The notes beneath the pieces were generated by a model. That model was not told the origin of the DNA. It saw only the letters and a program-made list of their open reading frames with translations, and did no database searches. DNA of 64,000 bases from Paraspadella gotoi (Eukaryota > Animalia > Chaetognatha), in the NCBI GenBank assembly GCA_051294375.1, contig CM119268.1, positions 11,719,585 through 11,783,584 of the forward strand, read 5' to 3'. Position numbers and translations under genes: made by a program. Of this stretch, positions 3,868-62,341 are shown one piece after another. Within the stretch, counting starts at the first letter, position 1. Every line of letters starts with the position of its first letter.

Positions 3868-6800
3868 TCAAACGTCTTTCCCCCCGACGCGGCCAATACA
3901 GCAGAGGCACAACCCGTACCGACAGAAAAAGCCGACGACGAATTGGAAAAACTCCAAAACAGTCAGCACCGACACTCCGACGAAGAGGCCCAAGTGACCG
4001 CCGATGGCTCCCAGAAGATCCTCCAGCGATTTCGAATTCTCCTGAAGTCAAAAATATTTTTAAAAATAAAATATAGTATATATATATTACAAGTTATAAA
4101 GCATAATAGGACAGCGCATCATTACAAGAAAGTAATTGCAAGTAAGTCCCGTTTCCAAACTAATATATAATATTTAATATTATAAAATTAATTACAGACT
4201 TTTTCATATTGTAAAAAAATGTTAAATTCTGACCCGCCTTATTATCCACTTTTACCACTGCCACCGGGTCTACCTCAGTAACTTTCAAGAATCGCTCCGG
4301 CATGACGACTTTGATCTCGGTCGTTGCTGCGACGTTGCTGTTGCTGCCGCAGGGGCTGCTCGTGAAGGAGAGCGACAATTCCGTGGGCGAGGCCGGGCAC
4401 GTCTCCTTGCAGCCAGAGAAGGGCCGGGTGCTTTCGAGAATAGAGGTGCTGCAGGAACGGTCTGCGAGAAGGCGATCGAATTTCATTTCAAAGTCAAAGC
4501 TTAATCATGATTGAATTGGCTTTCTCAACGTGATTAAGATTACATGGTAAGCTGGGTGCGAAATAGTTTAAAGTTTCGAAGTGTTTCTGCTAAGTTGTTA
4601 GGAAATCTGGTGGGTAAAATTATTTATAGACCAGTAAAATCGTGCAAGAAAAACTAATATGTAGTTTTGTTCTAATGTCAAAGCTCAAACTTTTTTTTCA
4701 GATTAACATCGATAGTTGGTTCGGCCAAGACGACGACTTTCGACATACAAACTGGAGAGTTTACGGACCTTGGAACTCGAGCAACATTTTCCTATTCAGA
4801 ATTCGCGTTCGTAGTCGAATGAATACGTTATGGCAAGCCGGGTTGCCTGTGATGCCCATTGGGATGGGGCATCTCACTGGTTGGCTTTGGGGGCTTCCGA
4901 CCTCAGTGACGCCTCCAGTCATTGGCGCGGTTACCCTAGGACGGTCTCGCTTTGCCAACGCAGAGGGAAGTCGTTTAGGACTGTGGATGGAACACTACGC
5001 CTGGGATGGTGTGTTCCCCCTCTGAGCCAATGGATTGGCTGAAGGATGGTGGACGTGAGGCGTGTGAATATACCGCACAACGTCTTCCATGGAAACAAAC
5101 TATATCATAGAAGGCCCTTTTTCTTTTAGGCTCATCGCCTTTAACGGAGACGACGACAAGTACGACGACGACCACAACGACGATGACGCAAACGACAACG
5201 ACGACGAAGAAACCAACAACGACCACAACAAAGAAAACAACCAAACCGACAACAACTACGAAAAAAACGACCACATACTCCAATGAAAACAACGACGAAG
5301 ACAACAACGGACTACAACAACTACGAAAGCGAGACAAACTACAACAACGACCACGACGACCAAGGCGAAGGATGCAGGTTTGAAATTACTCGAGAAAAAC
5401 AACCTACATATTAAACAACCTACATATTCGATTCTTTTAACGTCATCTCATGTACTGTTAATTTAACGATGAAAACGTTCAATTTCATAATGGAGTACAT
5501 TGCAGAAAAAAAAAAGAGAAAATTATGAAATTTCCATATATTTCGACATATGTTTCTATGTCATTTTCAGTGGAAGTAAGAGAGTTAACAAGCAAACTTT
5601 TACAAAGAAAGAAATAATGAGAGTGGAACTGTTTTTTTTGGGGGGGTTCTTCTGACCACTTTAAGGTCATTTAGTCTTTAGCCTTTTCATTGTTATTGTG
5701 TCTCTCTCTCATTATTTTTTTCTCTTGTAAAAGTTTTGCTTGTTAACTCTCTTACTTCCACTGAAGATGACATAGAAACATATGTCGAAATATATGGAAA
5801 ATTTATAATTTTCTCTTTTTTTTTTCTCTGCACTGTACTCCATTATGAAATTGAACGTTTTCAGAAAACCNNNNNNNNNNNNNNNNNNNNNNNNNATATG
5901 TAGGTTGTTTAATATGTAGGTTGTTTTTCTCGAGTAATTTCAAACCTGCATCCTTCGCCTTGGTCGTCGTGGTCGTTGTTGTAGTTTGTCTCGCTTTCGT
6001 AGTTGTTGTAGTCGTTGTTGTCTTCGTCGTTGTTTTCATTGGAGTAGTGGTCGTTTTTTTCGTANNNNNNNNNNCGGTTTGGTTGTTGTTTTCTTTGTTG
6101 TGGTCGTTGTTGGTTTCTTCGTCGTCGTTGTCGTTTGCGTCATCGTCGTTGTGGTCGTCGTCGTACTTGTCGTCGTCTCCGTTAAAGGCGATGAGCCTAA
6201 AAGAAAAAGGGCCTTCTATGATATAGTTTGTTTCCATGGAAGACGTTGTGGCGGTATATTCACACCGCCTCACGTCCACCTCCTTCACAATCCTTGGCTC
6301 AGAGGGGGAACACACCCCTCCCAGGCGTAGTGTTCCATCCACAGTCCTAAACGACTTCCTCTGCGTTGGCAAAGCGAGACCGTCCTAGGGTAACCGCGCC
6401 AATGACTGGAGGCGTCACTGAGGGTCGGAAGCCCCCAAAGCCAACAGTGAGATGCCCCCATCCCAATGGGCATCACAGGCAACCCGGCTCTGTGCCATAA
6501 CGTATTCATTCGACTACGAACGCGAATTCTGAATAGGAAAAATGTTGCTCGAGTTCCAAGGTCCGTAAACTCTCCAGTTTGTATGTCGAAAGTCGTCGTC
6601 TTGGCCGAACCAACTATCGATGTTAATCTGAAAAAAAAAGTTTGAGCTTTGACATTAGAACAAAACGATGNNNNNNNNNNGTAAACTCTCCAGTTTTTAT
6701 GTTGAAAGTCGTCGTCTTGGCCGAACCAACTGTCGATGTTAATCTGAAAAAAAACTTTGAGCTTTGACTTTAGAACAAAACGATGTAAAGAAAATCTTAA

Positions 6801-9800
6801 AGAAAGAAATATTTTCTAAATGATGTTTTAAACGAAAAGTATTCGCCAAAAGTAAGGTCGACTCACCATGCCCAATTCCGCTCCATTAACATCGATGAAC
6901 TTTCCTCGCTGCAGAGAGAGAATGTCTCTTTTCAAATTGCCTCGGATCGTGAGTCTTGCCCGTCGCTGCCTCATCTCATCCCAAGGCGGACACACCGTCC
7001 AGGTCTTAACTCGCGGCGAACTAGATAACAGTGAAAATAGCATTTCAACCGCTTTTAATGATCTAATTTAATCATTTTATCATTATCTCTTTATATTTTT
7101 TCAAATGTGTATTTAACTTACCCTAAGAATCTTCCTTCGTCGAACTTGAATCGGCAAGCGACCTCACCGCCGCTTATGAGAGCCACCGTGAATCCCGCTG
7201 TCGAATACGCGGCGTTTTCTGTCCCGATAAAAAGTTCGAGCCCAGTGTTGTTCGCGCTTTCCAGTTCGTCTTTGGGAATCGAGAAAAATTATTCAAACTT
7301 AATATATACACCTACTATTACATCCGGCGATTGTTTGTTCGCGGTCTTCATTGTAAAATATTTCTAAAACACAATGTTTTGGCAATACATCTTTAGTGTT
7401 GGGTATGAAATGCCCTATCGCTCGATAAAAAGTTATGAATAAAAAATCCTTTCCCTCTTCCAAATAGAGTACGTATATACGTATATTCATTTAAAAAAGA
7501 AAAAGAAATTAAATTAAAAATATCCTTCTTCACTCGTGCCTCACCCGTCCCGTTTCGTTGACAAATGAAGGGCAACTCCTTATCGCAGGAAGCATCATTC
7601 CACATCTTCACTTTCGGAAAATTCACGGATAGACAATCTTCGTTTCCTCTTTTGTCGTTGGGTTCACCTTGGTTCCACTGAACTGGCGACCCAGTTTGGC
7701 TCACAGGCGAACCGTCTAGCCACCGCCAATCTCCCTCCTTCTCGATGTCAGAGGCGCCCGCCCAAAACGGTTTCGAGTCGCATGGGAACAGGTTACTCGC
7801 CGCGTCAATCAGTTCTTGACTAAACAAATGAAAAGTGAATTAAATATCTGTTTGAAGTGACCGAGAGGAGAGGTCGTCATCATGCCCCGGCGACTGAAGA
7901 TTGGAAAGCCCCCAAACTTAGTGTGCCCAGTAGGTCTTAAACATTTTTTCGTGCTTTCTGGAACTCTTAATCTAGTAGTAGACTTGAGAGCGGTGGTTTA
8001 ATCGGCCCGCCACTATCTCACAAGGATCCTCAGAACCAGGGCGAGAACACGGGTCCGATGGGGGTAGAGCGGAACAGCCGCTGCAGGTTCGCTACTTCTC
8101 TGATACACGTGATCTCACTTTCCCATTTCTATCTCATCAATCACATTTAACGTCTAACCTGTCAAGGACGACCAATCTCATTCCTCGATCCTCGCAGGCC
8201 GCCTTTGCTTTTCCCCATATTCTTTTTCTTCGATCAGCGACAAGGATCGATCCGTCGACGCATTCCACGTCGGTCGGTCCTTCCTCGCTTCCGCCTTCGC
8301 TTCCGCCTTCGCTTTCGCGCTGGCTTCCGCTTTCGCTTCCAACAGATTCACTCTTTCCTCTTCTCGCTTTTCTGTGACGTCTTTTCGCGTCAGCTCTGCC
8401 GCTCTCACGGATGATTTGGGCGCTTCTTTTTTTTCTCTTATCCCCACAAGCATTTTTTTCCTTTTTGCCTTTGCTGCTTTTACTGCCGTGACTTCCGCTG
8501 CTTTGACTGCTTCTCCCTCGCCTCCTCGTCGCTTCGCCGTCGACGCTTCCATCAAGGACTTCGGATATCGATCCCAATAATCTTCCTTTGCAAGTTTTGC
8601 TTTTCAGCGAATCCGTTTTAACTCCTGACAGAAGGGAATTATGAATTAAAACAACAATCTTATTAACCTGGTTACTAAATTAATTTTAATTCGTCGAGAG
8701 CCGCTCACTTCGTCTCAAGGTAGCAACATCGTCGGGAGAAATTTTCTCCTCGTTTTTTTTCACGTCGATGGTTGTAAGTTGGTCACTTTGGCCGGCCCGT
8801 TGCGATCTGCGATCTTGCGATCTGCCAACGCCCCTGGATTTCGAGGACTGGGTGTCGCCTGAATCGTCATCGTCGACGCATTTCTCTTCCTCCTCTTCCT
8901 GCTCTTCCTTCTCCAGCACGAACTTTTCCTCGTCTTTGTCTCCAAAAGGCTTCATCTCGCAATCTTTCTTTTTCATCATCTGAAGAGACGACATGTGTTC
9001 CAAGACACGATATTTAGTTAGCAATTAGAAATTGAACCCTTCTCAACTCATTATTATTATGTATAGATTATTATATGTTAATTTTATTATGTTTATAATA
9101 AAAATATTACGAAATATGTATTACGTAAATGCTTTCGATCCATAAAGCTTACTCAGCCAATGATCAATATATGCCACTGTATTCTAAAGCCGGAATTATC
9201 TTTGTTCTGAGAAGTTTAAAAGCGACAGGCTAGCGTCATATTTATTAATCTTGTTTCTTCCTCAAGCTTTCCTTTTAACACATTCGTCCATACAGCGTCA
9301 GTGTCATAAATGTGGTCTTGAAGGTCGGAGTGGGTTCATTTCCGGTCGGCGCTCTGTTGAAAATCGTTTAAGGTGGCAAAGTTTAAAAATTTGAGAGGAG
9401 AGAAAGAGACCGGTCGTAAGTCGCCCTAATATTCAAAATATTTTTTTTTCTTGAAAAAAAAAAAAAAGAAACAATTTGACAGTTGAAACGATAAAAAGCT
9501 GAGCATTGATTTGGTGGACTTAAAAATCACCAAACCGTTCATCCAGCGGGGTGCAGAGGCAAGATTATTTGCCTCCCAACTCCAAAGGGTCCGGCCGTTC
9601 AAGCAGCCTAGCCTAGGCCTAGCCTAGCCCTAGCCTCCGCCTAGCCTGAGCTATTAAAGTAGGACAGGCTCCAGAGGAACTCTTTATATTAAACGGTTCT
9701 TGTCATTAAATACTACTTATATTGGATAATCCGTTTCTTTTTCGTTGTAAAGATTTAGAGAAAAACAAGTTTTATTAGTTTCAGACGGAAATTTGTTTTT

Positions 9801-12090
9801 ATATGGAAAAACAGAATGTTCCGCTTTTTGGTTTTCAAGCGCTTCTTCCCAGTGTTTGTGAAATTAGACAAAATAATTGCAAAAGAAGAAGTGAGAAGAG
9901 AGAGAGAGAAGACGAAAGTTTAAAGTTTCCAACAAAGTGGTGAGACAGAATAGCTGGTCAGAGGTTGAGGACAGGGTAAGGTTGAAGACTTTGCTTGGAA
10001 ACTTTAACTTTCTCTACCTTCTCTTCTCTCTCACTCTCTTCCTTTTGCGGCACAATATTTTGTCTCTAATTCACAAAACTGAAGAAGGCTTGAAAACCAA
10101 AAGCCGAAACATGTCGTTTTCCTAATAAAAAATTTCGTTGGAAACTAATATAAAACTTGTTTTCTCTATGTCACTTAACTTCATAAAAATTATTTCTGTC
10201 TTCTTCAAAGCCAACATTTGTAACCGGGCCTCTCGATTGCATAAATTTTAAATACATTTTATTATCCGAAACTGTTAAAACAAAAAACAAAACAACCTTA
10301 ACGACCAAACAACCTTAACGACGGCGTCAGCCGTGGGTGCCTTGCTAGTGAACGGCTGGTTGCCGTCGTGGAGCACAGCATCTGCAGGTTGTTTGATGTG
10401 AGGCTGAGGTGTCGATCCCGACGCCGGAGAACGACTTGACGAGGGTTAGAGTCTGCGGGGGGCCAACGTCGCGGAAGAGGAAAAACAGCCTTGGATCGCA
10501 TGGGGCCTTAGATCGGTAGTCCAAGAGATGCGAGCAGATGCGTTAATGACTAATTTATTTCTGTGGTTAACCTGACTGGATTCTAGTAGTTTTATCGATG
10601 TATATTTTTTTTTTCGATCCACGGAAAGATATACACTGGTGACGAGACTGTTACAAATACTAACAAATAAAAGTTCACTCTATACCAACCTCTCCAAAGA
10701 TAGACACCGCGTCCCAGTCCAGGACGTACTTCTTGATCGCCTTCGTTGTAAAGACGCACTTTTTCCGATTGGCGAATCTGGAACCGGCCGTCAGAGGCGC
10801 TGGGGTGGCGTTTTGAAGGGCGAAGACGAGTTCCCCGTGTTCCGTCTCGACGAAAAATTCGCCGCAGGAGAAAGTCGCGTTGGTGATTGAACTTAAGGGG
10901 GCAAAGAGTTTAACAGTATAAAAATTAAAAAAAACAAAGTAAGAATAAAACAAAAGTAATTTAAAAAGAATATTCAGAAAATGTAAAAATTAATTTAAAA
11001 AAATAATCAGAAAAGAAAGAAACATAAAATAGGTAAAAAAAAAAAGAAAGTAAAAATTTTAAACATAATTAAAAGGGCATAAAAAATGAGCCGCTATAAA
11101 ATATATCCGACAATGAAGTCGAGAGTTATGACAATTCTTCAAACTTCTTTCCCCGGCGCGCTCCGTACCTGTTTATCCCTTCCTTGATCGATTCGCAAGT
11201 CGACGCAATCGTCGGACAAAAGACGAGCGACGGAAATCCCTCGGCGGCGTCTCCCTCAGACGTCATTGTGGCGCTAAGAGGCGTCATCGCCACCCGCGAC
11301 TCCGGTTTTTGATGGAGGTAATCCTTTGGTAGGGTTGGTGGGGGTACGAAAGAAGAAACAGATTTGAAATTTTAATTTTTTTGTTCTATTATATGTTTAA
11401 TAAAAAAAATAGGGGAATAGTTAATAAAGTCCCTGCTCTTTTGTTTTTAAAGGAACTTTATACGTAGTGACATCGAGGGGAGTTTTAAGATTTTAGTTTT
11501 TTCATTTTTAGATTTTTTAAAATATATTTTGTGGTGTAATCCTTTCGTTTCGTTGTGTAATGATTAGAAGAGTTTGAAATTGACGCTGATGAAGGCTTGT
11601 AATTGAGCCGAAACATGTCCGTTATTAATAAAAATAAAACGTTGTTGAAAATTAATTTCAAACTCTCCTAAAATATATTTTTAAATATTCTATTTTTAAG
11701 TAATGTCACAGATTAGAAATAATAGAAAAACTGTCTTCTCGAAATTACTGTAAGTCTAACTGGGCAAACACAACCTTTGAGAAAGGGTATGAAGAAAAGG
11801 ATGAAATTACTGAAAAGATGATTGGGAAAACTTTTAAAATTGATTTAAAGTAGCTTTGTAATCAATCCTTTCGGTCTTAAACATCTTACATTGACGTCTT
11901 TCCAGACGAACCACATGACGAGCGAATACATAACGATGCAGACGATGAGCCAAAGAAATCCGCATTTTTTATTGGGATGAAGGACGTGCGCCCAACCGTG
12001 AGCCGACGTCGTCTGGAAAAAGTGGCTGACGGTGAAGGGCGCGGGCTCCGTCGCCTCTTGGGGCGGTTCCGGTGTTGGCGAATCCTTCAT
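3868..12090 (-). CDS. DEG/ENaC (ASIC-like) channel subunit with inserted C-type lectin and mucin segments; multi-exon
   Basis: Exons read by hand: 12090-11890 (FFQTTSAHGWAHV = HG motif, then TM1 GFLWLIVCIVMYSLVMWFVW); 11323-11169 (DYLHQK...FPSLVFCP); 10891-10690 (SITNATFSCGEFFVETEHG); 8979-8709; 8624-8159; 7819-7545; 7269-7168 (NNTGLELFIGTENAAYSTAGFTVAL); 7020-6867 (VRRELRPGRCVRLGM, needs one 1-nt indel); 6627-6522; 6196-5946; 4461-4274 (GCKETCPASPTELSLSFTSS...EIKVVMPERFLKVTE); 4041-3868 (TM2 EDLLGAIGGHLGLFVGVSVLTVLEF, stop TGA). All junctions are GT-AG and phase-compatible once that indel is allowed; the phase across the mucin exon cannot be verified because it contains Ns. Confidence 0.8.
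4666..6666. repeat. Inverted duplication of about 950 bp (arms about 4666-5622 and 5706-6666)
   Basis: The arms are reverse complements differing mainly by small indels; spacer about 85 bp. 6681-6785 repeats 6565-6670 again across an N gap with a few SNPs. Confidence 0.9.
5946..6196 (-). CDS. Thr/Lys-rich mucin-like exon, probably part of the DEG/ENaC gene
   Basis: Acceptor ttcttttag|GC TCA TCG and donor GCA G|GTTTGA (phase 1-1); encodes SSPLTETTTSTTTTTTTMTQTTTTTKKPTT...KAKDA; contains a 10-N gap. Confidence 0.55.
7545..8624 (-). CDS. C-type lectin domain (EPN/WND, mannose/GlcNAc type) on two exons, apparently part of the DEG/ENaC gene
   Basis: ECVDG...IWGKAKAACEDRGMRLVVLD|SQELIDAAS...FWAGASDIEKEGDWRWLDGS...WNQGEPNDKRGNEDCLSV...WNDASCDKELPFICQ. 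A phase-2 intron (8158-7820) joins the two halves. Confidence 0.92.
9512..9715 (+). mobile_element. Degenerate copy of the tRNA-headed repeat family with AACCGTTCA/TGAACGGTT inverted repeats
   Basis: Shares tggtggactNaaaa...aaaccgttca...ggtgcagaggc...gcctcccaa...aaagggtccgg and the 3' aacggttct with the copies at 56.7-58.7 kb. Confidence 0.55.
10075..10120 (+). ncRNA. Minimal type I hammerhead ribozyme (Penelope/retrozyme type), variant core
   Basis: aaaa CTGAAGA a GGCTT-gaaaaccaa-AAGCC GAAA catg TC gtttt: CUGANGA core, stem II, GAAA, palindromic ACATGT stem III, GUC triplet; stem I imperfect. Confidence 0.65.
11581..11624 (+). ncRNA. Minimal type I hammerhead ribozyme (Penelope/retrozyme type)
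   Basis: TGACG CTGATGA a GGCT-tgtaattg-AGCC GAAA CATG TC CGTTA: complete core, stem I TGACG/CGTTA, predicted cleavage after GUC (11619). Confidence 0.8.
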
Positions 12091-12142
12091 TGCTGATGGT
12101 CGATCATTGCTGTTTTGAGATTTTAAGGAAACGGATGGAATT

Positions 12143-12254
12143 ATGAAATTGGTACAACCAATATAAAAATTATCCATTCATTTAATAAATAAGCTATCTT
12201 GTCCCTGACTTTGGACGTCTTTGGTGGTTTAAGGCCTCCATCACACTTACAAGA
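12143..12254. repeat. Dispersed repeat of about 110 bp, copy 1
   Basis: Near-identical to 16453-16565 (atgaaattggtacaacc...ggcctccatcacactt). Confidence 0.85.
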
Positions 12255-13163
12255 GTATGTAAGAGAAACGAGTTTGTCTGACTTAGGGAAGTTATTTTAG
12301 TTTTTTAACGACTTTTACGTTATTTTTTATATTTCGTGTAAGAAACAATTAAATACTCACTCGACAATTTGAGAATCTGTCCTAGTTCGTAAATCGGAAA
12401 GGGCGAAAATGAGTTTGTGTTTCATTGTAACTAGCCAGTTTATTTTTTTATACCTGCGGTAGTTCAGATAAAACGGCTTTGAGAAGTTACAGCGAAATCG
12501 ATAATTACGAAACGAAAGAGAACCTAAAAAAAAAAATGAAAGGGATTAAGTAGCGAAAAATAAATGCGTTTTCGTGGATGGAAAGGATTTGACTTATTGC
12601 TTTCATTTTTTCTTGCAACTGATTTTTATTGTGGATTGCTGATGTTTGGTGGAAATCCCAGATTTGTTGTAGTCCCGAGATTGTATTTGATACGCAGTTG
12701 TTATCATTAAAAGATTAACATAACTAATAACTTTATCGTTATTTTTCTATCAAATAATTTTTGAGGAAATTTAATATCTTTCCCGATTGAACTAGCAAAT
12801 TGGACAGAAATGATTTCTTGATTTGAAAAGTTAAAGAGATAAAATCTATTTTATGGAGTAAATTTATTCTAAGAAAAAAGATCAACAATACATGGCAATG
12901 TATCAACAATTTCAGAAGGATGGACGTAGGTTAAATACGAGTAGAAAACTAAATGATAACGTATTTCCTAACGATGATTTTAAAAATAAATTCATTGACA
13001 AGCAACTAGTCCAATGTTAGTTATTGCACGACGAATTAGAACCAATGCAGTTTTTAATCGTTGTACAAAAATTTCAGTCGTAAAAATAACTCTAATAATC
13101 CTCGCAAAAAAGAAACTTTGAATAATGCAGTTTGCAGCAGCTAATCGTCAAGCCAGTCGTAAA

Positions 13164-13345: not shown

Positions 13346-13821
13346 TCACAATTCGGTCGTCAGAAACGTGTAGTTGTCTCTTCTCTCGATCGTCGAGTAA
13401 ACTTGTTCGTGTTCTGACACGGCAATGACGGGGCTGCCGCCAATGATCGGCGCCGTCGGGGGCGGCGGATGCGGCGGCGGACGCGCGTCGTGATGCCGCG
13501 GTGGAGGCGGAGGCGGCGTGAGGGGCAGCGGCGAGGGCGTGACGCGCCGATCCCGAGACGGAAGCGGTAGCGTCGCGTCCGAATAAAACTTGTCCGATTG
13601 GATGTCGTACTTGGCCTGCAGCGCGTAGAGGTGAGACGGCGCCGCGTCCATGTAGTAGCGCTGCTGCTTGGCGCCGCCACCGACGCCACCCGAGTGACCG
13701 GAAGTGAGTGAGGGGCGCCGCTGCAGCGGGTGAGGATGATGGAGTTTGGGCGTGGCGTAGGGGTGGTCGAAGCGGAGGTCCTCGTCCGACGTTCTGAAAT
13801 CAATCAATCAATCAATCTATT

Positions 13822-13906
<85 letters not shown>

Positions 13907-16900
13907 ATCAATCAATCAGTTGAAGTACCTTCGCGAATGACGGAACCGCACGCATCGTCGGTAGAAGACGACAAGAATGGCGACGATGACGACGACGATT
14001 ACGAGACCGACGACGACGATGACGACGAAGACGAGGGATTGCGACGAGACGAGTCCCGACCAAAAATCGTCGTCGTCTTCCAGGACGGAGAGGTCGTTGT
14101 CATCCGAGGGAAAGGCTGAAGTGTCTGGCGAAGAGTTAAAGGAAAGAATATGTTATTCACGATTGATTTTCATTAGGTACTTTATCTAAATAGTTTTATC
14201 AATTAGATAAGCAATTAGTTTAGTTAGTTGGTTATTTTAGTTAATTATTTTAGTTAATTTAGTTATTTTCCTTATTTAGGGTATTATTTACATAGATTAC
14301 CTTTGAACTCTCGTAGCCTCTCCTCAACAAACCTTCAAAGTTCAACCAACCTGCGGAGGAAGCGTTGGAGGGTCGTCGTTCCTCCACTTTAAAATCTTCG
14401 TCGTTTGTCGTCGTCGTCGTCGTCTTCGTCCTTGTCGTGGTCGATTCCTCCAACGACTTCGGAGTGTGGCGTTGATAAGTTCGTACAGCCACGGTCGACG
14501 AAGTCGTCGGCGACCTAAGTCGGGGATCGTCGACGGCAGCTTTCGTGACGAGCGGTTGGACGGGTCGGCTCACGGATGATGAAGGAGGCGATGGATGAGA
14601 GGTTGGGGGTTTGAAGGGGGAAGGTGGGGTGTTGGAGGAATGTCTCGCAGTCGACGGAGCGGTTGGGATGTGGGATGAAAAGTTTGGGGATGAATGGGAT
14701 GTCTGATCGAAGGGGCGCGGTGAGAGGGAGTTGGAACGATTGAAGGTCCATCGCGAGTCTGACTGATCTTCGGAAGGAGAAGTTGCGACGAAGTCTTCCG
14801 AAGGGAAAGAAGAGAGAGCTTCGTTGGAGATAGTTGGGGTCTCGTCAGCGTCGGCGCCGACATGGGCATCTGCGTCGGTGTCGTCGAAGGTGGCGTCGGC
14901 AGCGGAGTTCGTCAAAGGCGTCGTCGCGTCGAAGATAGAATGTTCCGAAGTCCATCGGCTCGTCAAGTCATCGACCTCAGCTGAAGGAATTGACGGATAA
15001 GTCGTGGTAATGGAAGATGTAGTTGATGTCGTCGTTGATGTTCTCGGCGTTGTTGTTGCGACTGTCGACGTTTCTGACGTCGTCGTCGTCGTCGTCGTCG
15101 TTTTCGTCGAAAGATTTTCTCTCGCAAAAAAGTCGTCGATTTCGTTCGTTCCTTTCGTTGGATTCGACTTCTGCGGGAAAAAGGTTAAACAATTTTCATA
15201 TTAAATAAATATTAAACGATAAAGTTAAACAATTTATATATTTAATGAAGCGACCAAATCGCTTTAAACTCATTGGATCTACCATGAGCGTCGCCGCGGA
15301 GTTGGTCGTGGATGCAATGGAAGTCGTCTCCGATTTCTGCAGCTGACCCGAACCCTCGAAGATCTCATCAGATCCCGTCGCTCGCGGATCCGTCTCTTCA
15401 TCTTCCACGTCTTTGTCGACGTATTCATCGTCATCGTCGTTGTCGTCGTCTTCTTCGTCTTCGTCTTCGTCGTCATCGTCGTCGTCTTCGTCTTCGACGT
15501 CATCGTCATCGTCATCGTCTTCAATGAAGATGTCGCCGTCTTCGACAGGGATATCTGTTGTTGTTGTTGTTGTCGCTTCTTTCGTCGTCAAAGAAATATT
15601 TTTCTTCGGCGTCTTTGTTGTCGAGTTCTCGCTGACGCTCGAAAGTCTCGCTGTGACCGTTGCCTTGGCAATCGAGGCCTTGGTAGGCGTGGCCGAAGCC
15701 GTCGAATCATTTGAGTTCTCTTCAGAAGCTACCGAAGAGGTTGACTCTTCAGTTTCCTTCGATTTTTCCTTCCTACCCCTACTTTCATCCAAAGTTCCCT
15801 CCTCCTCCGCTTCAGCCACCGGACGCCGCTGCAGCGCCGCTTCCGCAGATCTCTCCTCTTCCGCTGCCTCCGCCTTCCGCTTCCACGCCTCGAAGTCAGG
15901 GATTTCGAAAAGAGAGTCGGAGTCAATCAACTCTTTGGCCAAGTCTTCGTTCATTTCCACCTGAGAAAAAAATATAGTTACTTCTTTCATTGGTTTAGAG
16001 GTTTTCGTGAAACAAAGTAACAGTTTAAAAGTTTAAAGTTTGAATTCATTGACTTTTAAATATTCACAGGAAATGAAAATTGTTTTCAAAATATCTTTTA
16101 ACCTCTACGAATATCGGCGTCATCTTTTCTTCTTTCGTTGACCCTTGCGCTTCCAGCTTCCTCGTCGTTGTCGTCGTCGTCGTCGTCGTCGTCATCGTCG
16201 TAGATGGCGGCTTTCCTTCCTCTCCCTGGTCCTCCTCAGGTTCCCCATCAATCTCCACCCCAGCAGCCAATTCAGCCGGCCAATCGCAATCGAGTATCCC
16301 TAAATCTTCCTGCAGCACGAAACCTTCCTCCTCCAGCACGCAGCGAACGCAAGAGCATTTGATGGCGCGAGGACCCATATGCTCGACTATTTGAAGAGCC
16401 GCTGGATGTTGCCAGGAACGAGTGTCAATGCGGATCTTGCCTGAAGGTTTTAATGAAATTGGTACAACCAATATAAAAATTATCCATCCATTTAATAAAT
16501 AAGCTATCTTGTCCCTGACTTTGGACAGGCTTTGGTGGTTTAAGGCCTCCATCACACTTGCAAGATAATAACAAAACAGGTTTCTGCAAGCTTTTAATCA
16601 AGCCTCTCTAATGTGTAAATTGGATTTTGCATGGGAATGCAATATGCTGGTTAGCTCAGCTGGTTAGAGCGTGGTGCTAATAACGCCAAGGTCGGGTTCG
16701 ATCCCTACTGGCCAAGAATGATTGTAAAGTTTTTGTGTGGTAATGCCAAATTTATAAAAATGTTAATTTTACCAAAAATTCAGCATTCACAACTGGCCGG
16801 TTAGCTCAGCTGGTTAGAGAGTGGTGCTAATAACGCCAAGGTCGTGGTTCGATCCCCCCACTGGCCAAGAATGATTGTAAATTTTTGTGGTAATGCCAAA

Positions 16901-19900
16901 TTAATTAATAAAATGTTAATTTACAAAATTCAGATTTCCACAACTGGCGGTTAGCTCAAGCTGGTTAGAGCGTGGTGCTAATAACGCCAAGGTCGTGGGT
17001 TCGATCCCCCCACTGGCCAGAATGATTGTAAATTTTTGTGGTAATGCCAAAATTTAATAAAATGTTAATTTTACAAAATTCAGCATTTCACAACTGGCCG
17101 GTTAGCTCAGCTGGTTAGAGCGTGGTGCTAATAACGCCAAGGTCGTGGGTTCGATCCCCCCACTGGCAAGAATGATTGTATAATTTTGTGGTAATGCCAA
17201 AATTTAATAAAATGTTAATTTTACAAAATTCAGCTTTCACAAACTGGCCGGTTAGCTCAGCTGGTTAGAGGTGGTGCTAATAATGCCAAGGTCGTGGGTT
17301 CGATCCCCCACTGGCCAAGAATGATTGTAAATTTTTGTGGTAATGCCAAAAATTTAATAAAAATGTTAATTTTACAAAATTCAGCATTTCACAACTGGCG
17401 GTTAGCTCAGCTGGTTAGAGTGGTGCTAATAACGACCAAGGTCGTGGGTTCGATCCCCCCACTGCCAAGATGATTGTAAATTTTTGGTTAATGCCAAAAT
17501 TTAATAAAATGTTAATTTTACAAAATTCAGCTTTCACAACTGGCGGTTAGCTCAGCTGGTTAGAGAGTCGGTGCTAATAACGCCAAGGTCGTGGGTTCGA
17601 TCCCCCCACTGGCCAAGAATGATTGTAAATTTTTGTGGCTAATGCCAATTTAATAAAATGTTAATTTTACAAAATTCAGCTTTCACAACTGCCGGTTAGC
17701 TCAGCTGGTTAGAGTGTGTGCTAATAACGCCAAGGTCGTGGGTTCGATCCCCCCACTGGCCAAGAATGATTGTAAATTTTTGTGGTAATGCCCAAAATTT
17801 AATAAAATGTTAATTTACAAAATTCAGCATTTCACAACTGGCCGGTTAGCTCAGCTGGTTAGAGCGTGGTGCTAATAACGCCAAGGTCGTGGGTTCGATC
17901 CCCCCACTAGCCAAGAATGATTGTATAATTTTTTGTGGTAATGCCAAAATTTAATAAAATGTTAATTTTACAAAATTCAGCATTTCACAACTGGCCGTTA
18001 GCTCAGCTGGTTAGAGCTGGTGTGCTAATAACGCCAAGGTCGTGGGTTCGATCCCCCACTGGCCAAGAATGATTGTAAATTTTTGTGGTAATGCCAAAAT
18101 TTAATAAAATGTTAATTTTACAAAATTCAGCTTTCACAACTGGCCGGTTAGCTCAGCTGGTTAGAGCGTGGTGCTAATAACGCCAAGGTCGTGGGTTCGA
18201 TCCCCCCACTGGCCAAGAATGATTGTAAATTTCTGTCGGTAATGCCAAAATTTAATAAAATGTTAATTTTACAAAATTTCAGCTTCACAACTGGCCGGTT
18301 AGCTCAGCTGCGTTAGAGCGTCGGTGCTAAATAACGCCAAGGTCGTGGGTTCGATCCCCCCAGCGGCCAAGAATGATTGTAAATTTTTGTGTGGTAATGG
18401 CCAAAATTTTAATAAAATGTTAATTTTACAAAATTCAGCTTTCACAACTGGCCGGTTAGCTCAGCTGGTTAGAGCGTGTGCTAATAAGCCAAGGTCGTGG
18501 GTTCGATCCCCCCACTGGCCATAATGATTGTATAATTTTTGTGGTAATGCCAAAATTTAATAAAATGTTAATTTTAACACAATTCAGCTTTCACAAACTG
18601 GCGGTTAGCTCAGCTGGTTAGAGCGTGGTGCTAATAACGCCAAGGTCGTGGGTTCGATCCCCCACTGGCAAGAATGACTTGTAAATTTTTTGTGGTAATG
18701 CCAAAATTTAATAAATGTTAATTTTACAAATTCAGCTTCACACACTGGGCCGGTTAGCGTCAGCGCTGGTTAGAGCGTTGTGCTAATAACGCCAAGGTCT
18801 GGGTTGCATCCCCCCACTGCGCCAAGAACTATCTGTATAACTTTTTGTGGCTATCTCACTCACCACATCTTACACTAAACATGTTAATTTTACCAAATTA
18901 GCAGTTCACAACTGGCCGCGTTAGCTCAGCTGCTTAGAGCGGCCGTGGTGCTAATAATGCCAAGGTCGTGGGCTTCGCATCCCCCACTGGCCAAAAATTG
19001 GATTGTTTAATTTTTGGTGGGTAATGCCAAAATGTTAATAAATGTGTAATTTACAAAATTCAGCTTCACAACTGGCCGGTTAGCTCAGCTGGTTAGAGCG
19101 TGGGTCTAATAAGCCAACGGTCGTGGGTTCGAATCCCCCCACTGCGCCCCAAGGCAAATGCTGTATTCTCTGTCGTGTAATGCCAAAATTTAATTAAAAT
19201 GTTTTAATTTCACAAAAATTCAGCTTCACAACTGGCCGGTTTAGGCTCAAGCTGGTTAGAGCGGGTGCTATAACGCAAGCTCGTGGGTTTTGATCCCCCA
19301 ACTGGCCAAGAATGATTGTATAATTTTTGTGGTAATGCAAAATTAATTAAAATGTTAATTTACAAAAATTCACTTCACAACTTGGCCGGTTAGCTCATGC
19401 TCGGTTAGAGCTGTGGTGCTAATAACGCCAGGTCGTGCAGGTTCGATCCCCCACTGTGCTAAGCAATGATTGTTATAATTTTTGTGGTAATGCAAAATTT
19501 AATAAGAATGTTAATTTAGCAAAATTCCAGCATTCACAACTGCGCGTTGCTCAGCGCTGGTTAGAGCGTCGGTGCTATAAACGCCGAAGGTCGTGGGTTC
19601 GATCCCCCCACTGGCCAAGAATGCATTGTTATAATTTTGTGTGCTAATGCCAAAATTAATAAAATTAATTTACAAAATTCACTTCAAAACTGGCCGGTTA
19701 GCTCAGCCCTTGTTAGAGCGTGGTGCTATAACGCCAAGCGTTCGTTGGTCATCCCCCCACTGGCAAATGATTGTAAATTTTGTGTGTAATGCCAAAGATT
19801 TAATAAAATGTTTAATTTTACAAAATAACGCATTCACAACTGGCCGATTAGCTCAGCTGGTTAGAGCGTGTGCAAATAACGCAGCGTGGGTTACGATCCC

Positions 19901-22900
19901 GCCCACTGGCTCAAGAATGATTGTATAATTTTTGTGGCTAATGCAAAAATTAATAAAATGTAAATTTTACAAAAATTCAGCTTTCACAACTGCGCCGGTT
20001 TAGGCTCAGCTGGTTAGAGCTGTGGTGCTAATAACGCAAGGTTGGGGTTTCGATCCCCACGTGCCAAGAATGATTGTAAATTTTTGTGTTAATGCCACAC
20101 ATCTCACCATAAGAAGTTAATTTTACAAAACTTCAGCATTTAACAACTGGCCGGTTAGCTTCAAGCGGTTAGAGCGTGGTGCTAATAACGCCAAAGGTCG
20201 TGGGCTCGATCCCCCCACTGGCCCAAGAATGATTGTATTAATTTTGGTGTAATGCCAAAATTTAATCAATGTTAATTTTAACAAAATTCAGCATTTGCAC
20301 AACGCTGTTAGCTCAGATGGTTAGAGCGTGTTGCTATAAACGCCAAGGTCGTGGTTCGAATTCCCCACTGGCCAAGATGATTGTAAATTTTTGTGGTAAT
20401 GCCAAAAATTTAATAAAATGTTTAATTGTACCAACAAATTCAGCTTTCACAATGCCGTTAGCTCAGCTGGCTTCAGAGCGTGGTGCTAAATAACGCCAAG
20501 TCGTGGGTGCGATCCCCCACTGGCAAGAATGATTGTAAATTTTTTGTGGTAATGCAAAATTTAATATAAATGTTAATTTTACAAACAATTCAGATTTCAC
20601 AACTGGCGGTTAGCCTCAGCTGGTTAGAGGCGTTGGTGCTAATAACCGCAGGTCGTGGTTCGATATCCCCACTGGCCAAGAATGATTGTAAATATTTGTG
20701 CGGTATAGCCAACAAATTTAATAAGATGTTATTTTACAAAATTCAGCATTCCAAAACTGGCGTAGCTCAGCTGGTTAGAGCGCGTGGTGCTAATAACGCC
20801 AAGGTCGTGGGTCGATTCCCCCACTGGCCAAGAATGATTGTAAATTTTTTGTTGGCTAATGCCAAAAGTTTAATAAGATGTAATTTTACCAAAATTCAGC
20901 TCTCACAACTGGCCGGTTTAGCTCAGCTGGTTACGAGCGCTGGTGCTAATAACGCCAAGTCGTGGGTTCGATCCCCCCCTGGCCAAGAATGATGGTAAAT
21001 TTTTGTGTAATGCAAGAGATTTAATAAATATGTTAATTTTACAAAATTCGCTTACCAACTGGCCGGTTAGCTCAGCTCGTTAGAGCGTGGTGCTAATAAC
21101 GCCAAGGGTGGGTTCGATCCCCCCATGGCCAAGAATGAATTGTTAATTTTTTGTGCTAATTCCAAATTTAGATAAAATGTTAAACTTTTACAAAATTCAG
21201 CTTCACAACTGCGCCGGTTAGCTCAGCTGTTAGAGCGTCGGTGCTAATAACCCAAGGTCGTGGGTTCGATACCCACTGGCCAGAAATTGATTTAAATTTT
21301 TGGGTAATTGCCAAAATTTAACTAAAATGTTAATTTACAACAAATTCAGCTTCACAACTGCCGGTTAGGCTCAGCTGGTTAGAGCGTGGTGCTAATACGC
21401 CAAGGTCATGTGGTGTCGATCCCCCCAACCTGCCAAGAATGATTTGATAATTTTGTGTAATGCCAAATTTAATAAAATGTTAATTTACAAAATTCAGCTT
21501 CACAACTGGCCGTTAGCTCAGCTGGTTGAGACGTTGCTGCTAATAACGCCAGGTCCTGGGGTTCGATCCCCCACTGGCCAAGAATGATTGTAAACTTTTT
21601 GTGGCTAATGCCAAAATTTAATAAAATGTAATGTTACAAAATTCAGCATTCACAACTGGCCGGTTAGCTCAGCTGGTAGAGCGTGGTGCCTAATAACGCC
21701 AAGGTCGTGGGTTCGATCCCCCCACTGGCCAAAGAATGATTGTATGATTTTTGTGGTAATGCCAAAATTTAATAAAATGTTAATTTTTACAAAAAATTCA
21801 GCATTTCACAACTGGCCGGTTAGCTCAGCTGGTTAAGCGTCGGTTGCAAATAACGCCAAGGTCGTGGGTTCGCATCCCCCCACTGGCCAAGAATGATGTG
21901 TATAATTTTGAGTCGCGGTATGCCAAAATTTAATTAAAATGGTTAATTTTACAAAATTCAGACAATTCACAAACTGCTCCGGTTAGCTCAGCTGGTTAGA
22001 GCGTGGTGCTAATAACGCCAAGGTCGTGGCGTCGATCCCCCCACTGGCAAGAATGATTGTAGTAATTTTTGTGGTAATGCCAAAAATTTAATAAAATGTT
22101 AATGTTATACAAAATATCAGCATTACAACTGCCGGGTTAGCTCAGCTGGTCTAGAGCGATGGTGCTAATAACGCCAAGCGTCGTGGGTTCGATCCCCCCA
22201 CTGGCCAAGAATGATTGTGTTATAATTTTTGTGTAATGCCAAAATTTAATAAAATGTGTAATTTTACAAAATCAGCATTTCACAACCTGCGCCGGTTATC
22301 TCAGCTGGTAGAGCGTGGTCTAATAACGCCAAGTCGTGGGCGTTCGATCCCCCCACTGGCCAAGAATGACTTGTATAATTTTTGTAATGCCAAAATTAAA
22401 AAATGGTTAATTTTACAAAATTCAGCATTCACAAGCTGGCCGGTTAGCTCAGCTGGTTAGAGCGTTGTAATAACGCCAAGTCGTGGCGTTCGATCCCCCC
22501 ACTTGGCCAAGAATGATCTGTATAATTTTGTGGTTAAATGCCAAAATTTAATAACAATTTTAATTACAAAATTCAGCATTCAAACTGGCCGGTTAGCTCA
22601 GCTGTTTAGGAGCGTGGTGCTAATAACGCCAAGCGTCGTAGGGTTCGATTCCCCTCATCTCTTCTTTNNNNNNNNNNNNNNNNNNNNNNNNNNNNNNNNN
22701 NNNNNNNNNNNNNNNNNNNNNNNNNNNNNNNNNNNNNNNNNNNNNNNNNNNNNNNNNNNNNNNNNNNATTTACCCTAAACTCGATAAATCTGACAGAAAA
22801 TTGTTTAAAAAAATAATTTTTCTTCTGATTTCCACAAATAATGCGTCATCCAACCTGCAACGTGACGTCGACCTTCTCCAGCGTCGGCATCTTCCCCAAG

Positions 22901-25258
22901 ATTTCGCCGGGAACGCTCTCCAACACCCCGCCGAGCACCGCCTCCTCCAGGGAGGACAAAAACATTAAGGCGAAAGGATGGAGCGACTCGAGGGCGCAGT
23001 CCCGACAGTCGAACACCCTCAGGTCAGAGTTGAAGGCAAGGTCGGCGTGGCCGATGCTGCGGACCGGGTTGGCGCGGAGGTGCAGTCGGCGAAGGGAGCG
23101 CGGGAGGTTGGGTGGGACGGAGGTGAGGTTGTTGTCGGAGAGATCCAGGACCTTGGGACGAAAAAACGGATTTGAGGTTCATTTCATTTGTCCTTTCATT
23201 TTTTTNNNNNNNNNNNNNNNNNNNNNNNNNNNNNNNNNNNNNNNNNNNNNNNNNNNNNNNNNNNNNNNNNNNNNNNNNNNNNNNNNNNNNNNNNNNNNNN
23301 NNNNNNNNNNNNNNNNNNNNNNNNNNNNNNNNNNNNNNNNNNNNNNNNNNNNNNNNNNNNNNNNNNNNNNNNNNNNNNNNNNNNNNNNNNNNNNNNNNNN
23401 NNNNNNNNNNNNNNNNNNNNNNNNNNNNNNNNNNNNNNNNNNNNNNNNNNNNNNNNNNNNNNNNNNNNNNNNNNNNNNNNNNNNNNNNNNNNNNTACTCA
23501 ATGATTGAACATGTCTTTTTGTGTCCGTAAATAACTAGTTTCAATAAAATGTATTGATTCGCCTCGAAACGATTCCGTTTGGTTTCACGATTCATTTATT
23601 CATGTGATGTCAGTCAATAGCCATTTGCTCTTAATTTTTCCCCTTCCCTCACTCGTGAGCGATTCATACCCTTAATATCATTTGGTTTTTAACTCTCTCT
23701 AGTCTTTTCGACATTTCTCTCCGCTCCCTCTCAAGTAAATTACAATCATTCCCTCATATTCAGCATTTTTCTAACGGCTGAAAGCAAATTACAATATAAC
23801 CGTATTATATCCAGGGGGATTAGCTCAAATGGTAGAACGCTCGCTTAGCATGCGAGAGGTACCGGGATCGNNNNNNNNNNNNNNNNNNNNNNNNNNNNNN
23901 NNNNNNNNNNNNNNNNNNNNNNNNNNNNNNNNNNNNNNNNNNNNNNNNNNNNNNNNNNNNNNNNNNNNNNNNNNNNNNNNNNNNNNNNNNNNNNNNNNNN
24001 NNNNNNNNNNNNNNNNNNNNNNNNNNNNNNNNNNNNNNNNNNNNNNNNNNNNNNNNNNNNNNNNNNNNNNNNNNNNNNNNNNNNNNNNNNNNNNNNNNNN
24101 NNNNNNNNNNNNNNNNNNNNNNNNNNNNNNNNNNNNNNNNNNNNNNNNNNNNNNNNNNNNNNNNNNNNNNNNNNNNNNNNNNNNNNNNNNNNNNNNNNNN
24201 NNNNNNNNNNNNNNNNNNNNNNNNNNNNNNNNNNNNNNNNNNNNNNNNNNNNNNNNNNNNNNNNNNNNNNNNNNNNNNNNNNNNNNNNNNNNNNNNNNNN
24301 NNNNNNNNNNNNGAGAATCGAGATTTAAACCTTGGAGGGTGAGGTGTCTGAGCGAAGGAAGGTTGGTGAAGGCGAAGGAGGGGACGAGTTGAAAAGGGGA
24401 GGAGGAAGAGGAAGAGGAGGAGGAGGGGGAGGAGGAAAACGCGGAGGATGTTATCTTGAGGTGAACGGTGTCGGGAGGAAACCCGGTGGGAAATGGGAGG
24501 TCTGTTCGATGTGAGAAAAAGATAATATAAATATTAATNNNNNNNNNNNNNNNNNNNNNNNNNNNNNNNNNNNNNNNNNNNNNNNNNNNNNNNNNNNNNN
24601 NNNNNNNNNNNNNNNNNNNNNNNNNNNNNNNNNNNNNNNNNNNNNNNNNNNNNNNNNNNNNNNNNNNNNNNNNNNNNNNNNNNNNNNNNNNNNNNNNNNN
24701 NNNNNNNNNNNNNNNNNNNNNNNNNNNNNNNNNNNNNNNNNNNNNNNNNNNNNNNNNNNNNNNNNNNNCGCATTCCACGAAGGGTTCCGCGTCGGGCCAT
24801 TGACTTCCCGTGCAACTGCATTGACGAGGACACGCCCCCTTCGCCTCCGCCAACTTTACGATGGAAAAAAACAAAAGAGCAATCCATATTCGGAGCGCGG
24901 TTGACGACGATGAACACGACGATGACGTAAACGAAGAGATTTTCCCTGATTCAACGCCTGTACAAGTTCTGATGTTAGAATCTCTCGAGTCTTTTTCTAT
25001 CATAGTTTTCGATTTAGACGAAATTTGTGCTAAATTTGCGGCGGTCGTTAAAGATGTAGTGGCTGCGGATTTTGAAACAGCACAGACGACATCCGCCGAA
25101 CGCGCGCGAATCAATCGAGCGCCGCCGATGGGCGGAGAAAACGCATAATCGAAATCACACGCGATGGAATCCGCGCGGCGGAGAAAACGCGGCGCGCGTA
25201 TCACGTCGTGCGCGCCGTTGCTGCCATTCGGAGGTGGAGGAGATGGTTCTACTCTCAT
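13346..25258 (-). CDS. Type I membrane protein: signal peptide, LRRNT, LRRs, LRRCT, acidic/Thr-rich stalk, TM, Tyr/Pro-rich tail with PDZ-binding motif
   Basis: Exons: about 25258-24769 (ALRIWIALLFFSIVKLAEA, CPRQCSC...VEC); about 24501-24312 (FAFTNLPSLRHLTL); 23151-22855 (VLDLSDNNLTSVPPNLPRSLRRLHLRANP); 16440-16103 (IKCSC...LDCDWPAELAAG); 15960-15283 and 15170-14301 (stalk); 14124-13929 (TM LVFVVIVVVGLVIVVVIVAILVVFYRR); 13793-13346 (...VYSTI...TTEL*). Two junctions need a 1-nt indel or an exon hidden in a gap. Start codon uncertain. Confidence 0.8.
13800..13918. repeat. (TCAA)n microsatellite filling the last intron of the LRR gene
   Basis: Direct inspection. Confidence 0.9.
16453..16565. 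repeat. Dispersed repeat of about 110 bp, copy 2
   Basis: Near-identical to 12143-12254, same orientation. Confidence 0.85.
16647..22655 (+). tRNA. Tandem array of about 40 tRNA-Ile(AAT) genes, unit about 150 bp
   Basis: Unit = 74-nt GGCCGGTTAGCTCAGCTGGTTAGAGCGTGGTGCTAATAACGCCAAGGTCGTGGGTTCGATCCCCCCACTGGCCA (anticodon AAT, A and B boxes) plus an AT-rich spacer of about 76 bp with a TTTTT Pol III terminator about 13 nt downstream. About 40 units counted by eye; the array runs into an N gap. Confidence 0.95.
18142..18215 (+). tRNA. tRNA-Ile(AAT), representative intact copy
   Basis: Acceptor stem GGCCGGT/ACTGGCC, anticodon loop CTAATAA, T-loop TTCGATC. Confidence 0.95.
23814..23870 (+). tRNA. 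tRNA-Ala(AGC), 3' end lost in gap
   Basis: GGGGGATTAGCTCAAATGGTAGAACGCTCGCTTAGCATGCGAGAGGTACCGGGATCG matches metazoan tRNA-Ala(AGC) including its GGATCG T-arm; one D-stem mismatch (GAAC instead of GAGC). Confidence 0.85.
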
Positions 25259-36077: not shown

Positions 36078-37730
36078 TTCTTTCTCGCTTTCTTTCCAAC
36101 CAGGCACCTCAGGATATTGTTCTTAGCATAGGGTTACGACAAAACAAATGTTTCTTCACGTTTTTTTTAGTTCTAATAATGTATCGTGATTCTAACAAGA
36201 AACGTCTATCATATTCGATATTACAAAATGAAAGATGGTTAAGATTTCGATGTTGAAAGTTTTGTAATTTCGATGGAGAAGCGAAGAGGAAAAATCTGTT
36301 TCGATAATTACACTATTTTCTCTCGTTCCGTTTAAGTTTTGACCTAGAAATATGGCGGAGATAGCGCAACGGCATGGCGTAACGTTATCCTAATGTATGC
36401 CCGTCGACAAATATATAATTAATAAAATTTAATTAATAAGTACGCCTGTTTTTTACGTATCCTTATTGAGTCTTTCAAAGCTTAGCAAGAGGAGCCAAAA
36501 AAAAAAAGGACAATACCTATCAGTGCTTTAGACTAAGTATCAAAAAGAAAGAAAATACCGGATCCCTAAAATCCATTTCTGTCTGGCCTCATATCTGCAA
36601 GCGATAACAGAAAGGAAGGAAGGAGATGCCGAGTGGTTATGACTAAAGGAGCGGAAGAACTTGAGATCGAGTTCGCAACAGAATCACCTCAGGCTCAGGG
36701 CGGAGAGATCGAAAATGGGGTCGCTTCGATCTTCGTAGAATTTCGTCAAACTTTCTTGGAGAACAAATTATCAATGCAAACTGTGAATGAATAAATTTAG
36801 GTTTTCGTTGTTTCCTCCTACAAAGCGAAGTGCGTCTGCATGTCAACTCAACATGAATACTTGAATGCTGTACTTTTGATTAACTTTATAACGTCTCTTT
36901 CTTGAGAATCGGGAATCTTGGATAAAAAAAATCTTTCCTTGGTTAATGGTTTATGTATTACCTAAAATTAATGGCTTATGTGAAAAATGTAAATCGACGA
37001 AAATAATTTTTGTCAAAGTCTCAGAAAAGAATTTCATTAAAGATGTAAAAAAACTTTTCACTGTCATACCTCTATTTGCTTCATGAGAGCATACCCAGAT
37101 GAATGTAGGCTACAGCCAATGCCGAAGAAGGGTATACCAAATATTGATAATATTTTACCCATGTTTTGTATACTTTTTATTGAATAAATGAATTATGTGA
37201 ATTATCCGAAAAGATCACGTTATTTCCCGTAACCGTTAGTCACGCCTACCCGGATCATTATAGTAAAAAAATCAGAATTCTTCAAATTTCAATCAAATTT
37301 AAGCTTTATTTCCAAGAGAATCATTATTTTCAAAGAATAAAGTGAATCGATTGGTCTCGACAGGTAAGCAATTCAGGCGCGGCTTGCGACCCAAATAGGA
37401 TTACACTCCAAAAAAATCCCTCTTCTCTCGTCATTATCATCGCTGTCATCGTCATCATTATCATCGCATAATCGAATTTTACTTTTTCTCTTTATCTTTT
37501 TTTTGTTCGGGCAAATGTCATTAAGCTTAGGATATTTTTATTTTTTATGTTTCGTTTAATTGTTTTAAATCACTTTTTAAAATTTTAGGCCGTGCAAATC
37601 AAAGTATTTAAAAAAAAAACAACATAAATTAAGATAATTCATTATCTTCTAAGGGTAATTTAAACGATTTGCCAAAACAAGAAAATAATTTTTAACTAAA
37701 AAAAAATTAATAAATAAAAAGACGCAAACC

Positions 37731-41035: not shown

Positions 41036-41974
<939 letters not shown>

Positions 41975-42419
41975 ATCTTTTTGTTTTTTTTTGTCTGAGA
42001 TATAAAGAAATCTAATTTTAAAGTTTAAAAAGAAAGCGAATTCGTAAACAAACGAGCATGGATGTCATTCGCGCCCAGACAAGCACTGAATCTGTCGAAA
42101 TATATGGGGCAAAGTGACGTCAAAATAGCACACTTTTAAGTGGGATATTTTTTAGTGCAAGAAATTAAAGATATTGAATTCAAAGTTAATTTTTATTATA
42201 CGCTGCCTTATTTATAAAAAATATCGTCTTTTTCTCAAGATTATTGATTTACGGGACAAAAACAATTTTTAATAATTTAAAAAATTAAAAATTGGAATTG
42301 CCTGCGGTACTTTAATCATTTGTTTATCGTGGTTATTTAACCCTTTAGCGCGGACACCTAGGGGGCCGAATTCGAACTAAAATTTAAAAACAAAATTACA
42401 ACCTTTTCTCTGCTCGTTA

Positions 42420-51843: not shown

Positions 51844-51886
<43 letters not shown>

Positions 51887-60137: not shown

Positions 60138-60186
<49 letters not shown>

Positions 60187-62260: not shown

Positions 62261-62269
62261 TAGATGTAG

Positions 62270-62341
62270 ATGTAGATGACGAAATCTACAATGAAAATGG
62301 AAATAAAGACGATGATAAAGACGATGATGGCTTTGAGGAAA

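Follow-up and report, generated by a model that had tools for sequence, protein, structure and literature searches.

It is an open question how sensory cells of animals convert microbial polysaccharides into electrical signals. In Caenorhabditis elegans, the part of one study available to us describes two DEG/ENaCs, named DEL-3 and DEL-7, as required for the reaction of a neuron to polysaccharide and peptidoglycan from bacteria; no primary sensor has been identified, and C-type lectin receptors were proposed for that missing role (PMC12425002). A natural protein uniting a DEG/ENaC channel with a C-type lectin would make this idea testable in a single chain. Here we ask whether a locus of the chaetognath Paraspadella gotoi encodes such a protein. 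The window, the 64,000-nucleotide stretch analysed in full, is animal DNA with AT-rich introns, and an initial annotation made from its letters had proposed that a C-type lectin domain is spliced into the extracellular loop of a DEG/ENaC subunit. We find the fusion to be the best reading of the DNA, given that a strong donor forces inclusion of the inserted exons, that the lectin has no start or end of its own, and that the lectin side of the gene is physically bridged by sequencing contigs.

Exon chain and inserted module

The DEG/ENaC gene, on the minus strand, begins with the ATG at 12090 and reaches its stop codon at 3868 (Table 1). The five exons of the initial annotation have AG/GT ends where it had put them and chain without a stop in the phases it gave, with one correction: the exon that starts at 7269 ends at 7122 and not at 7168, since no other end is in phase with the exon that follows. 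The three inserted exons (L1, 8979-8709; L2, 8624-8159; L3, 7819-7545) do lie on the same strand between DEG/ENaC exons, and each is open in a single frame, which is the one that the chain requires. With first-order, composition-matched resampling, that frame was open in 4.3% (L1), 0.7% (L2) and 2.7% (L3) of 5000 trials. The GC content of L1-L3 (0.49-0.52) matches that of the channel exons (0.53-0.56); the L2-L3 intron is also GC-rich (0.47). Further downstream, exon 6 recurs in part at 6681-6743, next to an N gap, and the Thr-rich exon contains an N gap that leaves its frame discontinuous in the assembly. Over 4664-6666, exon 6, the Thr-rich exon and introns are duplicated in inverted orientation at 90% identity, with N gaps; this is probably an assembly or haplotype artefact.

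Table 1 Features of the predicted gene, by position in the window
Feature	Position	Strand	Basis
Channel exon 1: start codon, HG motif, TM1	11890..12090	-	weak match to N-terminal part of a 7-sequence DEG/ENaC profile
Channel exon 2: beta1-beta2, FPSLVFC (like FPAVTxC)	11169..11323	-	chain frame, profile
Channel exon 3: short finger through beta4-beta5; ends in the strong phase-0 donor 10690	10690..10891	-	frame, donor score
4-nt extension to a weak phase-1 donor that permits a lectin-free or shorter isoform	10686..10689	-	open paths, donor score
Inserted exon L1: spacer, first acidic and then rich in Ser/Arg, phase 0 to 1	8709..8979	-	frame; X9 contig end
Inserted exon L2: basic spacer, RKKR, then start of lectin, phase 1 to 2	8159..8624	-	frame; X9 contig 8243-8410
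Inserted exon L3: C-type lectin core with EPN, ED, WND, phase 2 to 1	7545..7819	-	Pfam Lectin_C
Channel exon 4: beta6, beta7, beta8	7122..7269	-	block placement; X9 splice to 7020
Channel exon 5: beta9 and start of non-canonical thumb	6867..7020	-	frame, blocks, X9
Channel exon 6	6522..6627	-	X9 depth fits splice 6867 to 6743
Thr-rich mucin-like exon where the thumb is expected, phase 1 at both ends	5946..6196	-	
Channel exon 8: thumb end, beta10 to beta12	4274..4461	-	position and frame only
Channel exon 9: TM2, G-V-S filter motif, stop	3868..4041	-	Pfam ASC; ASIC1 best solved match

Together L1, L2 and L3 add 337 residues. The initial annotation had called all three lectin exons, which overstates the domain: about 127 residues form it, and the 210 that precede it are a low-complexity charged spacer, acidic at first and basic later. 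Rich in Lys, Arg, Ser and Glu, the spacer is unlike a typical extracellular stalk and holds one furin-type RKKR site (8436-8425, in L2). Throughout the insert, hydrophobicity is too low for a signal peptide or a helix (highest mean over 19 residues, 0.86). The lectin domain begins in L2 at about 8265, with its first strands and helix 1, and has its core in L3. In a Pfam scan of 12 pieces, two exceeded the cut-off: ASC in the TM2 exon (3871-4047) and Lectin_C in 7546-7818, the latter with 55.4 bits (E 1.2e-14). Among solved structures, L3 is closest to the mannose receptor and langerin (E 2e-17 to 5e-17), and all four core cysteines, the signature of the two core disulfides of this fold, are present across L2-L3; the first hairpin is degenerate. 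Aligned without gaps to langerin, L3 retains EPN, the following Glu, WND and the cysteines. The calcium-sugar site is complete in this comparison, which bears out the motifs first noticed in the exon. The EPN/WND motif set marks Ca2+-dependent binding of mannose, GlcNAc or fucose, and the domain is predicted to bind mannose/GlcNAc-type sugars in a Ca2+-dependent manner. A single-sequence fold of L3 gave no usable structure (pLDDT 37).

L2 and L3 together span 741 nt with phase 1 at both ends. Symmetrical phase 1 is the pattern of shuffled extracellular modules, and by this pattern the pair looks like a shuffled exon module; no second copy of the L1-L3 block was found within the 64-kb window.

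The surroundings of the gene are varied. A second, unusual DEG/ENaC lies at 45200-54021 (minus strand, TM2 at 45.2-45.6 kb), in which some six exons of helical, coiled-coil-like sequence precede two canonical last exons with below-cut-off Pfam ASC matches (E 0.02 and 2.5e-4). Nested on the same strand within one of its introns is a VOMI-domain gene (46034-47236, minus) with its own start, hydrophobic N-terminus and stop, across which the channel can splice in frame from 48166 to 45582. The window also holds a tandem array of ~150-nt units with tRNA-Ile(AAT) at 16645-22207 (17 ARAGORN calls, 14 of them Ile, the later copies degraded), flanked by exons of a probable single-pass membrane protein with leucine-rich repeats and an acidic and Thr-rich stalk (13346-25400, minus); a protein that combines SRCR repeats, a Thr-rich stalk and three short Cys-helical repeats (37689-40352, plus); and a KCTD-like BTB_2 gene (41052-42064, minus). 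A very GC-rich low-complexity stretch at 59700-62300 is unlike the rest of the window and possibly poor sequence.

Splice choice and read support

We examined eight splice paths around the insert, of which four are open: the full chain, 10686 to L2-L3, 10686 to exon 4, and L1 to exon 4. The last two are lectin-free and had been overlooked by the initial annotation. Donors were scored with a matrix trained on 14 other donors of the window, a small set used with leave-one-out, and compared with 135 decoy GT sites. Donor 10690 scored 5.0 bits, above 12 of the 14 reference donors, and was equalled by none of the decoys, while donor 10686 scored -1.8 bits, below all 14, and was equalled by 22 decoys. 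The insert donors reached 1.8 (L1), 6.2 (L2) and 5.9 bits (L3). A third donor, at 10679 (-2.6 bits), likewise keeps phase when paired with an acceptor at 7256. Joined straight to the exon at 7269, donor 10690 is out of frame and meets a stop, so that use of the strong donor forces inclusion of inserted exons.

The lectin exons had been said to have no signal peptide or terminal exon of their own, and this holds. In the upstream intron, none of ten candidate first exons feeding L1 and none of 20 feeding L2 carries a hydrophobic stretch; neither AATAAA nor ATTAAA occurs between 7545 and 7269; no stop lies near the end of the lectin domain; and the strong L3 donor at 7545 is in phase with exon 4.

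To this picture four sequencing runs, out of nine listed from three studies and none of them on record as RNA, add physical evidence, aligned over 6690-12300: X1, X5 and X6 (DNA) and X9, which was judged RNA-like from its spliced contigs, with some unspliced material. One X1 contig spans 7176-8909 with no difference from the window, and in X5 and X6 overlapping contigs together do likewise, which indicates that the lectin truly adjoins exon 4. In X9, the alignment of a 169-nt contig begins at 7020, with 57 letters of the contig preceding it, and another contig stops at 8708 with nine unaligned letters, as expected for splicing at the L1 donor; this fits a join from that donor to an exon whose first letter is G, true of L2 but not of exon 4. 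Splices 7122/7020 and 6867/6743, together with the contig stopping at 8708, reproduce the bin depths of X9 (0.79, 2.23, 2.67, 0.66). X9 hence gives support for splicing at two junctions of the channel and at the L1 donor, as inferred from tables at a depth of 2-3. Two further X9 contigs are unspliced, one of them across the L2 donor, and small depths occur at 8946-9133 and 10638-10825. Among the X9 joints listed there is neither a fusion junction (10690/8979, 7545/7269) nor a skipping junction; its cover over 7254-7817 is zero and says nothing for or against the fusion.

Sequence variation is very low over the lectin block, with 0/1734 (X1), 0/1345 (X5) and 1/1630 (X6) substitutions, against 28/2539, 35/2138 and 40/1794 in the flanking contigs (1.1-2.2%), as counted in eight listed pieces per run with two X5 repeat-element pieces left out. 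The near-invariant stretch (7417-8934) includes introns, and its depth suggests one copy; the simplest reading is a possible recent sweep over the block. X5 and X6 carry a 12-nt gap, which would preserve the frame if it fell in an exon; a tandem 12-mer lies in L2 at 8314. Contigs overlapping the L1 start show gaps of 4-31 nt without exact positions. The seven listed variants in exons 4-5 comprise four silent changes, three residue changes and no stops. High-copy short repeats lie at 12141-12254 (very deep in all four runs), 9400-10200 and 11390-11765.

Two alternatives bear on whether the fused chain is made at all. The lectin exons might mostly be skipped, through donor 10686 or from the end of L1, with L1-L3 or L2-L3 forming a minor isoform or belonging to a lectin gene that is nested or a relic. 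The two paths without the lectin are open, AATAAA hexamers lie upstream of L1 at 9246 and 9088, and the window does contain a same-strand nested gene, the VOMI-domain gene in the second DEG/ENaC. In contrast to that gene, the lectin block has no start, hydrophobic N-terminus, terminal stop or poly(A) signal of its own and ends in a strong in-phase donor, its reading frames are unbroken and hardly vary among three samples, and the skipping donor 10686 is weaker than every reference donor; we regard predominant skipping as improbable. An assembly misjoin in the intron at 9425-10181 could instead have joined the 5' half of one channel to the lectin and 3' half of another gene. This interval is repeat-rich, no listed contig of any of the four runs bridges it, the samples differ there from the window in repeats, the contigs on both sides run into other sequence, and the nearby assembly is untidy (the inverted copy over 4664-6666, N gaps). 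Yet the 5' half ends where the 3' half resumes, with channel order and frame kept, and the junction of lectin and exon 4 is bridged by single or overlapping contigs in all three DNA runs, so that, with regard to the raw-read check proposed at the outset, the reads support the lectin side and leave the interval 9425-10181 unbridged among the listed contigs. A misjoin thus appears very far from probable. We return to the fusion: the three exons keep the reading frame within a divergent DEG/ENaC gene and likely contribute, through splicing, to a single protein, the C-type-lectin insertion is real and probably expressed, and we hold with considerable confidence that it is translated as one chain with the channel.

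Channel core and position of the insertion

The TM2 exon matches Pfam ASC with 34.7 bits (cut-off 23.6, E 1.3e-8) and carries the GGxxGLFxGxS signature. Its best solved match is ASIC1 (E 8e-7), and 35 of its 37 library matches are ASC proteins. The HG motif and TM1, including its Trp, are retained, as is the G-x-S filter; HG motif and TM1 are in frame with TM2, with a weak profile match (E 0.012) and a frame that crosses the N gap in the Thr-rich exon. By TM2 and layout, we assign the gene to the DEG/ENaC family. Judged by its motifs, it is not filed as an ASIC: the long acidic stretch of the ASIC1 beta6-beta7 loop is missing, this loop being ~10 residues shorter than in ASIC1, and the thumb is not cysteine-rich, with four cysteines against 10-11 in all four references when the Thr-rich exon is left out of the count. 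A thumb exon is possibly missing from the assembly, given the N gaps and the inverted copy at this place. The conserved Asp of GDIGG is Ala, and comparison with Pfam ASC and with solved channels gave no match for the ectodomain exons. In its predicted form, the channel is degenerate: pore motifs are kept, the Cys-rich thumb is largely lost and a mucin-like exon is added. The lost thumb, the unrecognised ectodomain and the Ala in GDIGG make conduction uncertain.

The insert had been placed in a surface loop between two strands of the ectodomain. The downstream strand maps to beta6 as proposed, its block being in register in five of six references and that of beta7 in four of six; the upstream beta4-beta5 strand could not be confirmed, since the beta5 candidates, like the beta9 block, were placed in none of the six. 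Of 1000 shuffles, 38 reached the regional profile score. The loop before beta6 is 14-23 residues long in all but one of 11 reference instances and 62 long in that one, which suggests that the loop tolerates insertion. Placement of the insert in the acidic beta6-beta7 loop of ASICs, to which one local alignment had pointed, was rejected: 155 of 500 shuffles scored as high, and block placement favours a position before beta6.

Proposed protein and known relatives

We propose a two-helix subunit that displays a Ca2+-dependent lectin before beta6 and anchors the channel to glycans, likely acting as a tether; we put the chance that this model is right at about even. TM1 would carry the loop outside without a signal peptide, and the lectin would be held by a flexible arm of 210 residues on its N side and by 14 residues on its C side, the distance between its last Cys and beta6. 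Because the C-side link is so short compared with the N-side arm, glycan binding or pull could be passed on to beta6. Cleavage at RKKR would free the arm and leave the lectin on the beta6-TM2 half. Trimers, possibly including a partner closer to canonical channels, would carry as many as three lectins and could bind dense microbial, mucus or matrix glycans avidly. Any influence of the lectin on the channel would likely be that of a tether rather than of an acid-sensing pocket.

A stronger form of this model is a glycan-gated channel, in which the lectin replaces thumb and acidic pocket and, after furin cleavage of the arm, mannose/GlcNAc-rich glycans of microbes or mucus pull beta6 by way of the 14-residue link to open a Na+ pore directly, the sweep having acted on this function; we think it doubtful and would not favour it. 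The initial annotation had proposed that a lectin-bearing channel might couple glycan binding to ion flux, unaware of the thumb loss. Its lectin-bearing channel stands as the best reading; the coupling is speculative, because most of the thumb is lost, the fusion junctions are absent from the listed RNA-like joints and a weak in-frame skipping donor exists. The fusion might instead be real and non-conducting, its DEG/ENaC core serving as a trimeric membrane scaffold for the lectin and a mucin-like arm in adhesion or pattern recognition. The mostly missing thumb cysteines, the added Thr-rich exon, the very short finger and an ectodomain that Pfam does not recognise all fit such a scaffold, as does the observation, in the accessible part of an oocyte screen, that the C. 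elegans EGAS proteins, which combine EGF domains with a DEG/ENaC, gave no current above controls (PMC10424705). Against it, the HG motif, the TM1 Trp and the G-x-S filter are retained, and many genuine DEG/ENaC subunits were also silent as homomers in the same part of that screen (PMC10424705). We consider a silent scaffold less likely than the tethered channel and still a serious alternative. Even if silent, the tethered-lectin protein would be a case of a DEG/ENaC core reused through exon shuffling as a trimeric display scaffold.

A literature search for channel-lectin fusions, with most subscription journals outside its coverage, found no describing paper, and the available part of PMC9949801 does not mention lectins. 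Word-index protein searches returned no longer protein among 31 candidates for the lectin exon or 38 for the TM2 exon, which is weak evidence; Lectin_C was present in none of 37 TM2 relatives, mostly fragments, of which only ~8 were long enough to show it. Four metagenome loci with lectin matches (41-47% and 36% identity) had no DEG/ENaC match. In the ESM Atlas, TM2 retrieved ASC clusters only. A profile search for fusions among proteins of 981-2800 residues yielded one match in 5807 candidates, the uncharacterised NCBI model LOC100368436 (P0038) of Saccoglossus kowalevskii, for which the ESM Atlas gave no usable match and the literature search no paper.

Compared with ASIC1 and other DEG/ENaCs (PF00858), the predicted protein shares the two-helix layout, the HG motif, the beta2 motif and the order of beta6 and beta7, and differs in its 337-residue insert before beta6, short finger, mostly lost thumb Cys ladder and mucin-like exon. 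With langerin, the mannose receptor and DC-SIGN it has in common the EPN, Glu and WND ligands and the core cysteines, and oligomeric display would be similar; unlike in these receptors, the domain is loop-tethered at both ends, has no coiled-coil neck and has a degenerate first hairpin. Added extracellular modules on DEG/ENaCs are known from EGAS-1 to -4 of C. elegans, as described in the available part of PMC9478639; these are EGF domains and not lectins, have no sugar-binding motif, and gave no recorded currents in the accessible part of PMC10424705. DEL-3 and DEL-7 differ in that the available part of PMC12425002 reports no lectin domain in them.

The nearest parallel is LOC100368436, a full DEG/ENaC with carbohydrate-binding-type modules in its ectodomain, namely three F5/8 type C repeats and four LDLa. 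Two of the three repeats contain H-x26-R-x-D-x4-R, which we take to be the fucolectin motif. The expectation that automated annotations may hold similar fusions was thus right as to lectin-like modules in a DEG/ENaC ectodomain, which are already public in this model; its modules are F-type-like and not C-type, and domain tables such as those of InterPro may contain further channel-lectin models. The Saccoglossus modules occupy the finger, with beta2 (residue 163) before them and beta3 (residue 983) after them, and the thumb is canonical with 10 Cys, unlike in the gene described here. Beside the Saccoglossus model, the chaetognath insert represents a second loop and a second lectin class for DEG/ENaC proteins.
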